Assembly (NCBI RefSeq): GCF_013167455.1
Contig: NZ_CP038328.1
Direction: 5' to 3' (one strand)
Source: Escherichia coli O157:H7
Lineage (GTDB): Bacteria; Pseudomonadota; Gammaproteobacteria; Enterobacterales; Enterobacteriaceae
Length of the DNA: 64,000 bases
Part shown: positions 7,517 to 14,988 of the stretch, piece by piece
Layout: each line of letters starts with the position of its first letter
Position numbering within the stretch: the stretch's first letter is position 1
The notes under the pieces: model-generated
What the model saw: only the letters and a program-made list of their open reading frames with translations
Told to the model about the DNA's origin: nothing
The model's database searches: none
Position numbers and translations under genes: made by a program

Positions 7517-9982
<2,466 letters not shown>

Positions 9983-9998
9983 GTTCGCTAAAAAACAG

Positions 9999-10026
9999 AA
10001 CGGGGCCACAAGGTCCCGTTTTTTTC
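9999..10026 (+). terminator. rho-independent terminator of glgCAP
   Basis: 9-bp stem (aacggggcc / ggtcccgtt, one G-U pair), loop acaa, followed by a run of 7 T. Confidence 0.8.
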
Positions 10027-10097
10027 GCCTTTATTTCGGAAAAGTGTCCAGAGGGGGCGAGGGTTCTCGGGGAGTATAATTCCGTCATTCAGGAAGA

Positions 10098-11615
10098 ATG
10101 GACAGAATGATGCCAAATAGAAAATGGATTTTGACCTCGCTGATAATGACTTTTTTCGGCATCCCCATACTGGCGCAATTTTTGGCAGCGGTTGTTGCCA
10201 TGCTGGGTGTCGGGCTTACCGGTATTATTGAAGTTTGTAATATCCTTATCACGCCAACAATTTATCTTCTACTCAACGTCTTTATGCTGACGCTGGGGGC
10301 GATAATAATATTTTTCTCTGGTCGCGTGTGGGCCGGTGATAGCGCGCCAGAAAACAGAGAAATAGCCGTCTGGCGGCAATGCTTTTTTCTCTTACCCGCG
10401 CTATTAACCCTGGTTGGCTGGATAATCACGCTACATCTGGCAGATTATCAATTTCGCCAGATGGGAGCTGGTTGGTTGGCAAACCTTATGCTTCCCTGGT
10501 TGGGCGTTTTTTTAGTCTCATTAGTGGGTGGTGAGTACTGGTGGATGGTCATTATTCCCGTTGGGGCGCATATCAGTTTTTCGCTGGGATACGCCTGGCC
10601 GACCAGATATCCTTTATCCGGCACGTCCGGACTACGTTGCCGTAACTTACTCCTGTTTCTACTTCTCTTACTTGGTATTGTCGCCGGGTATCAGGCCCAT
10701 TTATATAAGCAGCAAAATCCTGGTGTCGGTGTACGCGAAAATATTGATATCAGGGCCTGGCGACCCGATAAACTCAATAATCGACTGACGCCGCTGCGTG
10801 GCAAACCGCAAATTCAGTTTAGGCAAAACTGGCCGCGAATCGATGGCGCCACGGCTGCGTACCCAATTTATGCTTCTGCATTTTATGCATTAAGTGTAAT
10901 ACCAGAGGATTTTCACGTTTGGGAATATCTGGAGAACTCTCGTACCCCCGATGCATATAACCGGATTGTTAAAGGTGATGCCGATATTATTTTTGTGGCG
11001 CAACCCTCCGGCGGGCAGAAAAAACGCGCTGAGGAATCGGGCGTCACTTTGCTATACACGCCATTTGCCCGTGAAGCATTTGTTTTCATCGTCAATGCGG
11101 ATAATCCGGTTAATTCCCTGACTGAACAACAGGTGCGTGACATTTTCAGTGGTGCAATTACCAATTGGCGTACTGTTGGCGGTAACGATCAGGAGATCCA
11201 GACCTGGCAGCGCCCGGAAGACTCTGGCAGCCAGACAGTGATGCAATCACAGGTCATGAAAAAAGTCCGCATGATCTCGCCGCAGGAAACGGAAGTGGCA
11301 AGCGTGATGGAGGGAATGATTAAAGTCGTTGCCGAATACCGTAATACAAACAACGCAATAGGCTATACCTTCCGCTATTACGCGACGCAAATGAATGCTG
11401 ATAAAAATATAAGATTGCTAGCGATTAACGGTATTACACCGACGGCGGAAAACATTCGCAACGGCAAATATGCGTACATCGTCGATGCATTTATGGTGAC
11501 GAGAGAAAATACAACGTCAGAAACACAAAAACTGGTCGAATGGTTTTTAACGCCGCAGGGGCAGAGTCTGGTAGAAGATGTGGGATATGTGCCGCTGTAT
11601 CTAACAATGGAATAA
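10098..11615 (+). CDS. uncharacterised fusion protein: N-terminal polytopic membrane domain (about 6 predicted TM helices, residues 1-210) plus C-terminal PstS-like periplasmic phosphate/anion-binding domain
   Basis: 505-aa ORF; N-terminal half is strongly hydrophobic. C-terminal half carries PstS-family signatures as I recall them: GATAAYPIYASAF, QRPEDSGSQ (compare RADGSGTS in PstS), IGYTFRYYA, ITPTAENIRNG. Start may be M1 or M4/M5; AGGAAG SD precedes 10098. Confidence 0.8.
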   Translation: MDRMMPNRKWILTSLIMTFFGIPILAQFLAAVVAMLGVGLTGIIEVCNILITPTIYLLLNVFMLTLGAIIIFFSGRVWAGDSAPENREIAVWRQCFFLLPALLTLVGWIITLHLADYQFRQMGAGWLANLMLPWLGVFLVSLVGGEYWWMVIIPVGAHISFSLGYAWPTRYPLSGTSGLRCRNLLLFLLLLLGIVAGYQAHLYKQQNPGVGVRENIDIRAWRPDKLNNRLTPLRGKPQIQFRQNWPRIDGATAAYPIYASAFYALSVIPEDFHVWEYLENSRTPDAYNRIVKGDADIIFVAQPSGGQKKRAEESGVTLLYTPFAREAFVFIVNADNPVNSLTEQQVRDIFSGAITNWRTVGGNDQEIQTWQRPEDSGSQTVMQSQVMKKVRMISPQETEVASVMEGMIKVVAEYRNTNNAIGYTFRYYATQMNADKNIRLLAINGITPTAENIRNGKYAYIVDAFMVTRENTTSETQKLVEWFLTPQGQSLVEDVGYVPLYLTME

Positions 11616-11640
11616 CGCTCGAGAGAAAGGAATCAGCGAG

Positions 11641-12633
11641 ATGAATAAATTCACCGGTGTTTTACTATTAGGCACGGCGTTACTGGCGGGATGTGTCGAC
11701 CGGGAAGGGTACTATAACAGCGTCAGGGAAGAAGAGAGCCATGGACTGACGTCTCTGCGGGGGCAACCTGCATTACGTTACAGCGATGATTGGTCAAGAT
11801 GGCCGAGAGTGTACGGCGCTACAGCCTTATACCCGCTGTATGCCTCCGCGTATTATAAATTAGTACCCGAGCCAAAAGATAAGGATCGAACCTCGCTGGC
11901 CTGGCAGGCGTATGGTTTGCAGCAAACCCGAACAGCTGAAGCCTACGATAGTCTGATTAAAGGTTCCGCGACGGTTATTTTTGTTGCACAACCGTCGGAA
12001 GGACAGAAAAAACGTGCAGAAGAAGCGGGTGTTAAACTGAAATATACCGCTTTCGCCCGCGAAGCCTTTGTCTTTATCGTTGATATTAATAACCCGGTAA
12101 ATTCTCTCTCTGAGCACCAGGTTAAAGATATTTTTAGCGGCAAAACTAGCCGCTGGAATAAAGTAGGTGGTAGTGACGAACATATAAAAGTCTGGCAGCG
12201 CCCTGAAGATTCTGGAAGCCAAACGATTATGAAGGGGTTGGTTATGCAAGACACCCCAATGCTGCCAGCTAAAAAATCCACTGTGATTGATCTTATGGGC
12301 GGTTTAATTACTGAAGTTGCCGACTATCAAAACACGCCATCTTCCATTGGGTACACCTTCCACTATTACGTCACTCGTATGAATGACAATATGCTCAAAA
12401 TGCGCAAGCAGATTAAACTTTTGGCTATAAATGGCGTTGCGCCTACCGAGGAAAATATCCGCAACGGCACTTATCCATACATTGTGGATGCCTATATGGT
12501 GACGCGTGAAAATCCCACGCCGGAAACGCAGAAATTTGTTGACTGGTTTATAAGTCAGCAGGGGCAACAGTTGGTAGAGGATGTGGGGTATGTGCCGCTG
12601 TATGAAGCATCCCCCGAATCATCAGGACAATAA
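11641..12633 (+). CDS. PstS-like phosphate/anion-binding lipoprotein (paralog of the C-terminal domain of the upstream gene)
   Basis: 330-aa ORF; signal peptide with lipobox LLAGC; roughly 60-70% identity by eye to residues 230-505 of ORF 10098-11615, sharing the FVAQPS.GQKKRAEE, AREAFVFIV, WQRPEDSGSQT and VEDVGYVPLY blocks. Confidence 0.85.
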   Translation: MNKFTGVLLLGTALLAGCVDREGYYNSVREEESHGLTSLRGQPALRYSDDWSRWPRVYGATALYPLYASAYYKLVPEPKDKDRTSLAWQAYGLQQTRTAEAYDSLIKGSATVIFVAQPSEGQKKRAEEAGVKLKYTAFAREAFVFIVDINNPVNSLSEHQVKDIFSGKTSRWNKVGGSDEHIKVWQRPEDSGSQTIMKGLVMQDTPMLPAKKSTVIDLMGGLITEVADYQNTPSSIGYTFHYYVTRMNDNMLKMRKQIKLLAINGVAPTEENIRNGTYPYIVDAYMVTRENPTPETQKFVDWFISQQGQQLVEDVGYVPLYEASPESSGQ

Positions 12634-13235
12634 TGATGAATATAATCAGACTTTATATTTATCCGTTATTTCTCGGCTTTGTTATTGTACCGTTGTTGGT
12701 GTGGCCGACGGTGGTTGCGCTGGCTGCCTGTGTAATCACGCTGAGTTTTCTGGGAGAAATACTGTTCTCAATCCCGCTCATGCACAGGCGTATTTCCCTT
12801 CTGCAATTACAACTATGGTTATCGGCTGAATATGCGCTTTTCTTCTGTGCAATGGTGGGCGTTGGTTGGCAATTTGCGCGCAGAACGCCACCTGAATTGA
12901 AAAGCAGACTGCATTGTTGGCTGGTATTTGCACCAGTTTATTTCTGGTTGCTCCTGTGGAATATCATTTTTTATGTCGCGCCAGCGCAAATTGCTTTGCT
13001 GGAAAATATGCGCAGTTTCTTTCTGACAGTTGTCTGGCTCCCACTGAATTTTTCGCCATTTTGGTCTCAACAGTGGATCGACTTTGTCGGTCCGATAAGT
13101 GCACAGCTTGGTTTTGCGTTGGGATATTATTGCCAGTGGCGTAGCAAAAATAGAAGCCAGATACGGAAGTGGAGTGAGTGGGGAACGTGCTTAAGTTTTG
13201 TTACGTTGGGTATGATGGCGTGGGCTTTGCGGTAA
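12633..13235 (+). CDS. integral membrane protein (about 6 TM), paralog of the N-terminal membrane domain of ORF 10098-11615
   Basis: 200-aa hydrophobic ORF; its ATG overlaps the upstream stop (TAATG); shares LGFALGYYCQW versus ISFSLGYAWPT and a similar helix spacing with the ORF1 N-domain. Confidence 0.7.
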   Translation: MMNIIRLYIYPLFLGFVIVPLLVWPTVVALAACVITLSFLGEILFSIPLMHRRISLLQLQLWLSAEYALFFCAMVGVGWQFARRTPPELKSRLHCWLVFAPVYFWLLLWNIIFYVAPAQIALLENMRSFFLTVVWLPLNFSPFWSQQWIDFVGPISAQLGFALGYYCQWRSKNRSQIRKWSEWGTCLSFVTLGMMAWALR

Positions 13236-13288
13236 TTCCCTGAATCAAAAAGTAGGTCAGATTGTTGACAACGTGGCGCTTTGTTCAT

Positions 13289-13387
13289 GCCTGATGCGGC
13301 GTGAACGCCTTATCAGGCCTACAAAATCATGCAAATTCAACATATTGCATAAACCACGTAGGCCTGATAAGCGTAGCGCATCAGGCA
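13289..13387. repeat. BIME: two REP elements in inverted orientation
   Basis: gcctgatgcggcgtgaacgccttatcaggcctac (13289-13322) and gtaggcctgataagcgtagcgcatcaggca (13358-13387) match the enterobacterial REP consensus. Confidence 0.85.
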
Positions 13388-13449
13388 ATTTTGTGTTTGT
13401 CATCAGTCTCAGGCCAGATTGAAATCTGACCTGATCACCTTACGTTAAT

Positions 13450-14955
13450 TTACGACGCCAGCGACAACTTCTGCTGCGTATATTCCACCAGCCACTGACT
13501 CACACGAGATTGTTGATCCGCATTCAGCCACATGCCTTGTTTTGTGCGACGCCACAGGGCATCGTCGGCGCGGCGGACCCACTCGTGGTCGACCAGATAT
13601 TTCAGCTCCGTTTCGTAGAACTCATGACCGAAATCTTCCCCAAGATCGCTTACCGCTCCCGCATTGCCGAGCAGCAGCTCGCTGTTGCTGCCATAAGTAC
13701 GCGCGTAATGACGTGCCAGCGATTCGGTCAGGAACGGATAACGGCGGCGTAAGCGAGCGGCATAATCGTCGCGGTCGCCCTCGATGGCGCCACCCGGTAG
13801 CACGCTCTCTTTCGTCCATGCCGGGCCAATACCCTGATAATACGGCGTTAGTTTTTCCAGCGCATGTTCCGCCAGTTTTCGGTAGGTGGTCAGCTTACCG
13901 CCGAATACCGACAGCAGCGGTGCTTTGCCATTTTCATCATGAATATCAAGGGTGTAATCACGGGTAATAGCCTGCGGCGAGTCGGACTCATCATCACACA
14001 GCGGACGCACACCGGAGTAGGTCCAGACGATATCGTCACGGCTAAGCTGTTTTTTAAAGTGCGCGTTATACACTTTCAGCAGGTAATTGATTTCACTCTC
14101 TTCAATCTTCACTGCTTTCGGATCGCCTTTGTATTCCACATCGGTGGTGCCGATGATGGAAAACTCGTCCATCCACGGGATCACGAACACAATACGTTTA
14201 TCTTCGTTTTGCAGAATGTAGGCCTGCTTTTGGGTATGCACGCGCGGCACCACAATATGGCTGCCTTTGATCAGGCGAATGCCATAAGGCGAAGGCAGAT
14301 GCATCCCGTCGTCGAAGAACTGTTTCACCCACGGGCCGGTGGCGTTAACCAGGCCGCGCGCTTGCCAGCTATATTTTTTGCCGGTATCGATATCTTCCGC
14401 TTCCACAATCCACAGGCCGTTTTCGCGACGAGCAGAAGTAGCACGAGTACGAGTAAGCACTTCGCCGCCTTTACGCACCACCATCTGGGCGTTGGCGAGC
14501 ACCAGACGGGCATCGTCTACCCAACAGTCGGAATATTCGAATCCGCGCTTAATTTCCGGTTTTAACACTGAATTTGCGCCAAAACGCAAACCAGTTGATC
14601 CCGGCAGGCTGGTGCGTTTACCCAGATGATCGTACATAAACAGACCAATGCGAATCATCCACGCCGGGCGCAGATGCGGACGATGTGGCAGGCGAAAACG
14701 CATCGGGAAGGCGATATGCGGGGCCATTTTCAGCAGCACTTCACGTTCAGCCAGCGCCTCGCTGACCAGGCGGAATTCATAGTGCTCAAGGTAGCGCAGG
14801 CCACCGTGAATGAGTTTTGAACTGGCGGAAGAGGTCGCGCAAGCGAGATCCTGCGCCTCCAGCATCAGCACGGATAAACCGCGTCCAGCGGCGTCTGCCG
14901 CGATACCAGCACCATTGATGCCGCCACCTATCACAATCAGATCTTTGGTTTCCAT
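13450..14955 (-). CDS. glpD: aerobic sn-glycerol-3-phosphate dehydrogenase
   Basis: ORF track 13450-14970; protein METKDLIVIGGGINGAGIAADAAGRGL... (FAD GGGxxG motif); start set at the internal Met to give the 501-aa form. Confidence 0.95.
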   Translation of the reverse strand: METKDLIVIGGGINGAGIAADAAGRGLSVLMLEAQDLACATSSASSKLIHGGLRYLEHYEFRLVSEALAEREVLLKMAPHIAFPMRFRLPHRPHLRPAWMIRIGLFMYDHLGKRTSLPGSTGLRFGANSVLKPEIKRGFEYSDCWVDDARLVLANAQMVVRKGGEVLTRTRATSARRENGLWIVEAEDIDTGKKYSWQARGLVNATGPWVKQFFDDGMHLPSPYGIRLIKGSHIVVPRVHTQKQAYILQNEDKRIVFVIPWMDEFSIIGTTDVEYKGDPKAVKIEESEINYLLKVYNAHFKKQLSRDDIVWTYSGVRPLCDDESDSPQAITRDYTLDIHDENGKAPLLSVFGGKLTTYRKLAEHALEKLTPYYQGIGPAWTKESVLPGGAIEGDRDDYAARLRRRYPFLTESLARHYARTYGSNSELLLGNAGAVSDLGEDFGHEFYETELKYLVDHEWVRRADDALWRRTKQGMWLNADQQSRVSQWLVEYTQQKLSLAS

Positions 14956-14988
14956 GCTGCCCTCATTCACTTTCGTTAAAGTTCATAA

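Follow-up and report, generated by a model that had tools for sequence, protein, structure and literature searches.

Between glgP (7535–9982) and the convergent glpD (13450–14970), a 64,000-nucleotide (nt) stretch of Escherichia coli O157:H7 DNA (contig NZ_CP038328.1; the window hereafter) carries an islet of three genes on the same strand, the last of which, open reading frame 3 (ORF3), is the subject of this analysis. Across the locus the window is 100% identical to NZ_AP018488, and the RefSeq annotation of E. coli O157:H7 contains the same three genes at 100% identity. ORF1 (10107–11615, + strand) encodes 502 amino acids (aa) from the RefSeq start at 10107, or 505 aa from an alternative ATG at 10098, and joins a hydrophobic, multi-helix membrane N-domain of ~210 aa without a Pfam family (about 10107–10740, +) to a PstS-like PBP_like_2 domain (about 10836–11552, +; Pfam PF12849, residues 247–485, E = 1e-28). 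ORF2 (11641–12633, +) encodes a 330-aa PstS-like lipoprotein with the lipobox LAG-C18 (Cys codon at 11692–11694). ORF3 (12633–13235, +) encodes a 200-aa membrane protein that is hydrophobic over its full length, is named Ybl142 in UniProt and carries the label "hypothetical protein" in RefSeq.

The stop codon of ORF2 (TAA, 12631–12633) and the ATG of ORF3 (12633–12635) overlap in the sequence TAATG, so that an earlier note on this DNA, which had placed ORF3 at 12633–13235 and described it as translationally coupled to ORF2, was correct in both coordinates and junction. The other ORF3 alleles start at the position of a second ATG, 12636, which is probably the conserved start of the gene. The same note had proposed that ORF3 resembles the membrane domain of ORF1, that fused and split versions of one two-module unit therefore lie side by side, and that ORF2 and ORF3 form a complex equivalent to ORF1. 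From the comparisons described here it is reasonably likely that ORF3 is a distant stand-alone paralog of the membrane module which is under selection, and that its adjacency to ORF2 in O157:H7 is secondary, having come about through gene replacement.

Homology of ORF3 with the membrane module of ORF1

A BLASTP comparison of ORF3 with ORF1 residues 1–215 aligned 12 residues (154–165 in both proteins; E = 0.035), which is not significant, and hhalign with profiles built exclusively from Escherichia sequences returned a probability of 2.4% and a score of 21, a value that 6 of 60 block-shuffled controls attained and that resembles the scores of unrelated membrane ORFs of the window. Word-indexed homolog searches with ORF3, the ORF1 N-domain or a merged profile recovered almost nothing other than Escherichia fragments. 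When 1.84 billion representative proteins were searched with a hidden Markov model (HMM) of the ORF3 family, 42 matched, with no fusion protein among them at E ≤ 0.001; the exhaustive search of this collection also supplied P0151, a divergent full-length ORF3 relative of metagenomic origin that is 36% identical.

Scanning of one genome per species (100,044 species genomes) with conserved binding-domain peptides yielded 24 loci containing 960 ORFs. Against these ORFs, all top non-self matches of the ORF3 HMM are fusion proteins (E down to 8e-12) and are colinear over nearly the entire N-domain, and in the reciprocal search the N-domain HMM recovers ORF3 proteins at E values of 4e-9 to 2e-12. 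Deeper profiles of 13–14 sequences were then compared, one representing the ORF3 family together with P0151 (alignment A7) and the other 14 N-domains from several genera (alignment A6). With these, hhalign aligns 176 colinear columns (1–183 vs. 1–178) at a probability of 98.6% and an E value of 1.1e-15, and the score of 100.5 compares with 21 for a reversed profile, 13.8 ± 2.4 when columns are shuffled within 22-column blocks, which preserves the helix layout, and 42 ± 9 (maximum 72) when the order of blocks is permuted. The result stands when the Escherichia N-domains are removed, and Escherichia N-domains alone still give a probability of 84%.

Profile comparison thus confirms true paralogy between ORF3, which stands alone, and the membrane module of ORF1, although the relationship is distant (about 19% identity). 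The resemblance that the earlier note had drawn by eye is upheld, and the segments quoted there, ISFSLGYAWPT of ORF3 and LGFALGYYCQW of ORF1, occupy residues 159–169 in each protein and fall in identical alignment columns; the profile–profile alignment suggested as a check moved from 2.4% with Escherichia-only profiles to 98.6% with the deepened ones. The note had also rightly judged the membrane domains to be less similar than the binding domains, for which the identity is 58% (see below).

Two motifs are common to the families. Motif 1, GWQFARRTPPE at ORF3 residues 78–88 (12864–12896, +), was located in the HMM, hhalign and merged alignments and has the general form GW-x-(W/F)-AR-x-T-x-PE; in the N-domains of other genera it reads GW-x-W-AR-x-T-x-P-E and lies at the end of helix 2 that is predicted to be cytoplasmic. 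Motif 2, PISAQLGFALGYYCQW at ORF3 residues 154–169 (13092–13139, +), is intramembrane, includes both the local BLASTP match and the ISFSLGYAWPT segment of the earlier note, and has the general form P-(V/I)-x-x-Q-x-x-F-x-LGY, that of the N-domains being P-V-G-x-Q-x-x-F-x-LGY. In the merged alignment, A8, residues G78, P101, L106, P154, F161, L163 and G164 are invariant in both families. As the same two motifs are kept on both sides, with polar and helix-breaking positions conserved inside the membrane, the ORF1 membrane module looks like more than an anchor.

The N-domains of ORF1-type fusions, of which yzgL is the remnant in K-12, are like ORF3 in length (~200 residues), in the order and spacing of helices, in both motifs and in loop charges. 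Unlike these fusions, ORF3 lacks a binding domain, is diverged to the low identity given above and has a gene for a 255-aa protein as its conserved neighbor; it is found in Escherichia plus one metagenomic relative, whereas the ORF1-type fused gene occurs in many genera. ORF3 stops directly after its last helix, with no PBP_like_2 domain attached, and therefore represents a domain-only paralog outside the fused architecture. That such a paralog lies beside a fusion is nothing unusual in evolution, and no pointer to a new mechanism was found.

An AlphaFold2 model of ORF3 computed from its own family only was unusable (predicted local distance difference test, pLDDT, 47; predicted template modeling score, pTM, 0.29), while the merged alignment produced a model with pLDDT 75 and pTM 0.74. 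In a Foldseek search of AFDB50 with the latter, the best non-self matches are the N-domains of PstS-family fusion proteins (TM 0.56–0.66), examples being those of Salmonella enterica subsp. salamae (TM 0.66, root-mean-square deviation 4.7 Å, 194 columns) and Budvicia; a Foldseek search of the PDB gave no match, ABC (ATP-binding cassette) permeases included. The hydropathy and charge patterns of the two modules agree, with positive loops at ORF3 residues 82–93 and 168–183 and at the equivalent positions of ORF1. The predicted topology of both would be N-in and C-out, probably with five crossings plus one non-spanning helix but perhaps with six crossings, which would place the binding domain of ORF1 in the periplasm.

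ORF3 evolves under purifying selection. Nei–Gojobori ratios of non-synonymous to synonymous substitution (dN/dS) between ORF3 alleles and between Escherichia species are 0.21–0.26 at dS values of up to 0.8, in comparison with 0.10–0.12 for ORF1, 0.16 for the ORF1 N-domain and 0.08 for the ORF1 binding domain. Intact copies are present in E. albertii, E. marmotae and E. whittamii, and 42 columns of the family alignment are invariant even with the 36%-identical P0151 included. These ratios, together with the persistence of an intact gene in these species, indicate that ORF3 is maintained by selection.

Pfam, NCBIfam, PADLOC and PHROGs contain no family for ORF3, for the N-domain or for the 236-aa and 255-aa proteins considered below, and nothing relevant was found in the literature on yzgL, Ybl142, the WP accessions or the domain architecture. 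The homology assignment for ORF3 appears to be a new annotation. It is the first family assignment for the hypothetical protein Ybl142, whose gene is present in about 70% of the complete E. coli genomes, and it defines an uncharacterized membrane domain not covered by Pfam, to which a PstS-like domain is attached in many Enterobacterales and of which K-12 has only the yzgL remnant.

The binding module and the upstream partners of ORF3

ORF2 is 58% identical to the C-domain of ORF1 (residues 230–501; E = 5e-117). Both belong to the same fold family as the PstS / PBP_like_2 proteins (PF12849, TIGR02136) of ABC importers, to which ORF3 does not belong. They differ from PstS in scoring below the NCBIfam cut-off (119–122 bits, with 119 for ORF2, vs. 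206.6 for TIGR02136; 15.8 vs. 205 for TIGR00975), in the lack of pstCAB-type genes nearby, and in the attachment of the binding domain, which is to a non-ABC membrane domain in ORF1 and to a lipid in ORF2. In the PDB, the ORF2 binding domain matches PstS proteins with E ~1e-16. When it is aligned with Clostridium perfringens PstS, its R-x-x-D-S-G-S segment lies opposite R-E-D-G-S-G-T, the phosphate-binding loop of PstS. ORF1 would most likely be a membrane-tethered periplasmic binding protein for an oxyanion (phosphate-like), and ORF2 a free lipoprotein copy of the same module. Covalent tethering of a binding domain to a membrane domain, as in ORF1, is likewise a feature of ABC permease fusions of the OpuA/GlnPQ type; unlike these, the membrane domain of ORF1 and ORF3 matches no solved structure (Foldseek against the PDB) and has no adjacent ATPase gene.

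ORF2 possesses its own lipid anchor, a lipoprotein signal ending in …LLAG-C18 with Val at position +2. Under the +2 sorting rule, Val at this position predicts sorting of a lipoprotein to the outer membrane, which is the predicted destination of ORF2. Placed in a neighbor-joining tree of binding domains, ORF2 forms a deep branch within the Enterobacteriaceae and does not join the ORF1 clade of Escherichia; it is therefore an old paralog rather than a recent copy of the neighboring ORF1. The ORF2 signal peptide (VLLLGTALLAGC, window 11641–11700) can be aligned, weakly, in a colinear manner with LLLLLGIVAGY, the helix that closes the ORF1 N-domain (ORF1 residues 183–260 compared), which hints that ORF2 might descend from a fused gene that lost its first helices and underwent a Tyr-to-Cys change.

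Fusions of a multi-helix membrane domain to the binding module were detected in several Escherichia species, Phytobacter, Klebsiella spallanzanii, Intestinirhabdus, Pseudocitrobacter, two further Enterobacteriaceae and Limnobaculum, and fusions with shorter N-terminal regions in Lentisphaeria, Opitutales and Clostridiales. At loci L022–L029, from metagenome-assembled genomes of Lentisphaeria, Opitutales, Clostridiales and Zoogloeaceae, PstS-like domains 38–41% identical to ORF2 follow shorter hydrophobic N-terminal regions of 1–4 helices. The fused gene is syntenic between glgP and glpD in several genera of Enterobacteriaceae, and in Phytobacter, UBA3516 and some E. coli it is the sole gene between them; no ABC permease or ATPase gene of the pstC/pstA/pstB type is present in any of the syntenic loci, where the neighbors are glgP and glpD. 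Duplicated or disrupted copies were also observed, comprising a tandem duplicate with two intact copies in Intestinirhabdus alba, a tandem duplicate with a frameshifted second copy in K. spallanzanii, and genes split or truncated at two loci in Superficieibacter electus (duplicated and split genes at L013 208–3382, L011 3230–6369, L008 3637–4876 and L021 3329–4816).

Among 5,426 complete E. coli genomes, 3,829 (about 70%) contain an ORF3-like gene at a coverage of at least 80%, and ORF2 is present in 883–900. The gene upstream of ORF3 is ORF2 in about 883 genomes and, three times as often, a gene for an unrelated 255-aa soluble protein (about 2,952); the two figures, which are totals and not a per-genome cross-tabulation, add up to 3,835, close to 3,829, so that ORF3 is apparently always preceded by one or the other. 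The islet of O104:H4 consists of ORF1, a 236-aa gene, the 255-aa gene and a 201-aa ORF3-like gene, and that of AREA_487 of ORF1, the 255-aa gene and an ORF3-like gene. Nissle 1917 has a seven-gene chaperone-usher fimbrial operon in place of ORF1, followed by the 236-aa, 255-aa and ORF3-like genes, and neither ORF1 nor ORF2 was detected in this genome. In K-12 the islet is reduced to the yzgL remnant. In front of P0151, the relative of ORF3 that has diverged most, lies an overlapping gene for a 278-aa homolog of the 255-aa protein (50% identical), which indicates that the pairing of the 255-type gene with ORF3 is old. The stand-alone ORF2 gene followed by ORF3 was encountered in one Escherichia genome (L006) among the 100,044 species genomes; another ORF2-like gene may start in E. 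albertii, on a contig whose end lies shortly downstream. Cys-rich soluble proteins of 236 and 255 aa (CCEYC…, ECLCAM…, CRDCNSC…) recur in the islet in Escherichia, Pseudocitrobacter and K. spallanzanii (L003 4582–6062, L002 2564–4044, L005 121–957, L014 4794–6306 and L011 6369–7082).

The 3′ end of ORF2 records the replacement of its predecessor. Genes of the ORF1 type end in …VGYVPLY-LTME*, ORF2 in …VGYVPLY-EASPESSGQ*. From ~12599 onward (TGTATGA, the approximate recombination breakpoint), the DNA of ORF2 can be aligned with the 3′-terminal part of the 255-aa gene (…CAMYDASSESSGH*, followed by TAAAGATG), and in E. whittamii the 255-aa gene ends in …MYDASPEPSGQ*, again followed by TAAAGATG. 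The last 11 codons of ORF2, lying in the segment 12599–12633 (+; DNA alignment A3), are thus homologous to the tail of the 255-aa gene; ORF2 is therefore chimeric, and its tight junction with ORF3 was inherited from the gene that it replaced. In the ORF2 lineage point changes turned the junction TAAAGATG into the overlapping TAATGATG. ORF3 is always tightly coupled to an upstream gene, and the order found in O157, binding module before membrane module, is the opposite of that in the fusions. ORF2 and ORF3 also differ in allelic history. Between O157 and Escherichia sp. E1V33, ORF2 is 99.7% identical and ORF3 85.5%, and identity bands suggest that the ~558 genomes with ORF2 at ≥99% carry two ORF3 alleles, in ~310 and ~248 genomes.

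Interpretation and alternative readings

The sequence of events that best accommodates these observations would begin with an ancestral glgP–glpD islet that held the fused gene. In Escherichia the islet would also have held a downstream cassette of 236-aa, 255-aa and ORF3 genes, with ORF3 tightly coupled to the 255-aa gene. ORF2, a gene for a binding-domain-only lipoprotein and an old paralog, would then have been substituted for the 236-aa and 255-aa genes in the O157:H7 lineage, by way of a crossover 35 nt before the stop codon of the 255-aa gene, through which ORF2 would have acquired its last 11 codons together with the coupled ORF3 junction. ORF3 would most likely be a copy of the inner-membrane module without a binding domain, working with or independently of the upstream product and not needing ORF2, and its ancestral partner, if any, is best read as the cytoplasmic 255-aa protein. 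The comparisons demonstrate homology, gene replacement and purifying selection, whereas topology, ligand and partners are inferences. ORF2 and ORF3 are probably not a matched split pair.

Several points weigh against this interpretation. The direct similarity between ORF3 and Escherichia ORF1 is weak, and the case for homology depends on intermediate sequences and on profiles of 13–14 sequences. The Foldseek result is not fully independent, because the alignment supplied to AlphaFold2 already contained N-domains. The direction of replacement, from 255-type to ORF2-type, was deduced by parsimony. Furthermore, the C-terminus of O157-type ORF3 (…GMMAWALR) resembles the last N-domain helix that leads into the binding domain in fusions (…VAGYQA / VACWQA), and the tight junction shifted from TAAAGATG to the overlapping TAATGATG in the ORF2 lineage; in view of this likeness and this shift, ORF3 could conceivably be linked to a binding domain.

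The interpretation offered in the earlier note, that ORF2 and ORF3 are ORF1 divided in two, with the lipoprotein docking on ORF3 to form an ORF1-like complex and translational coupling matching their amounts, is considered doubtful. Each gene is homologous to one half of ORF1, as in Rosetta stone pairs, in which a composite protein likewise accompanies separate genes homologous to each half; the two overlap in TAATG, are both intact and adjacent in about 883 E. coli genomes, and ORF3 is under purifying selection in the ORF2 context. The fused family, moreover, shows both modules working together in cis. Unlike Rosetta stone pairs, however, ORF2 and ORF3 are not co-inherited, are arranged in an order opposite to that of the fusion and have diverged to greatly differing extents (58% identity for the binding module vs. 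about 19% for the membrane module). Conservation pairs the ORF3 family with the 255-aa soluble protein rather than with a binding protein, and both the junction and the ORF2 tail derive from the gene for that protein. ORF2 has a lipid anchor of its own, with Val at +2 predicting outer-membrane sorting, and near-identical ORF2 genes are paired with ORF3 alleles of 85–100% identity. Nissle-type genomes keep the ORF3-like gene, with ORF1 and ORF2 not detected, and among the 100,044 species genomes the arrangement of stand-alone ORF2 before ORF3 turned up in the single genome and the possible E. albertii case mentioned above.

The comparative evidence therefore removes the arguments from adjacency, coupling and fission for an ORF2–ORF3 complex. 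Of the proposal that fused and split versions lie side by side, one part stands, as both modules are present once fused and once as separate genes, and the other, that ORF2 plus ORF3 is a split equivalent of ORF1, is not supported; the Rosetta-stone prediction of an ORF1-equivalent complex likewise lacks support in view of the 255-aa partner, the inherited junction, the reversed order, the unequal divergence, the separate anchor, the mixed alleles and the persistence of ORF3-like genes where ORF1 and ORF2 were not detected, although the two products may still bind each other. Adjacency and translational coupling can accordingly mislead reasoning of this type, the coupling in this instance having come from a replaced gene.

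ORF2 and ORF3 might nevertheless cooperate if the ~200-residue membrane module were a hitherto undescribed signaling or transport unit with interchangeable partners and the O157 arrangement a partner swap, a possibility that we regard as unlikely. The partners of the module may then be a PstS-like domain in cis (ORF1), the cytoplasmic Cys-rich 255-aa protein in trans (most Escherichia) and the ORF2 lipoprotein in trans (O157 lineage).

On another reading, which we consider improbable, ORF3 would be what is left of a second fused paralog, in decay after losing its binding domain and carried along without a function of its own. Tandem fused paralogs, some of them frameshifted, do occur in K. spallanzanii and Intestinirhabdus, ORF3 has its stop immediately behind the helix that leads into the binding domain of the fusions, the islet is prone to deletion (K-12 yzgL, a 675-aa fusion, many truncated database entries), and the dN/dS of ORF3 (0.21–0.26) exceeds that of the ORF1 N-domain (0.16). 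These ratios are nonetheless well under 1 at dS up to 0.8, and ORF3 is intact in 3,829 of the 5,426 E. coli genomes as well as in E. albertii, E. marmotae and E. whittamii. The motifs are strictly kept, with 42 invariant columns when P0151 is counted, and tight coupling to an upstream gene is retained in every case.

That ORF3 and the ORF1 N-domain are unrelated, their likeness being a product of chance or of the composition of hydrophobic helices, would agree with the non-significant pairwise BLASTP, with shallow profiles that reach 2.4% probability and are matched by shuffled controls, and with the lack of a fusion protein at E ≤ 0.001 in the 1.84-billion-protein search, but is made highly improbable by the full-length match of the deep profiles (E ~1e-15; shuffles 14 ± 2 vs. 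100), by proline, glycine, tryptophan and glutamine positions that are invariant in both families, by the N-domain proteins that make up all top non-self ORF3-HMM matches among the 960 ORFs, and by a Foldseek result that concurs with homology.

Islet polymorphism and minor features

Within E. coli the islet (window 10098–13235 compared with L003, L002 and L009) is unusually divergent and contains alternative cassettes. ORF1 has a dS of about 0.46, and ORF3 one of about 0.8, between the O157 and the O104/Nissle alleles. This divergence suggests either old polymorphism or import from other Escherichia species. Lying between glycogen and glycerol-3-phosphate genes and being unusually polymorphic, the islet is a reasonable target for phenotyping. 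A role as a defense or toxin-immunity islet was considered and dropped, as no match to such a system was obtained.

Two rearranged forms of the islet were noted. The K-12 pseudogene yzgL (L031, compared with window 9983–10330 and 13100–13460) is a deletion remnant in which approximately the first 77 codons of ORF1 (…FFSGRV) are joined, at a short GTG-rich microhomology, to approximately the last 19 codons of an O157-type ORF3 (…WGTCLSFVTLGMMAWALR*). P0227, a 675-aa E. coli protein present on five contigs, is a natural in-frame triple fusion of the ORF1 N-domain, an ORF1/ORF2-hybrid binding domain and, joined to the latter at …VGYVPL|LVWPTV…, ORF3 from about residue 21; it was apparently formed by deletions at a short VPL repeat and is probably non-functional, because the predicted topology of its ORF3 part would be inverted. 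The 679-aa AFDB entry A0A1X3IUT8, which is 85% identical to ORF3 over 177 columns, may be similar to P0227.

The islet ends in the spacer between ORF3 and glpD (13236–13449), which contains REP-like (repetitive extragenic palindromic) sequences and is kept in K-12 downstream of the yzgL remnant. An Rfam match to the ES036 (CssrF) small RNA at window 13323–13365 (+), with 39.3 bits against a gathering score of 37.6, falls in this REP-rich spacer, and the REP palindromes alone may explain it.

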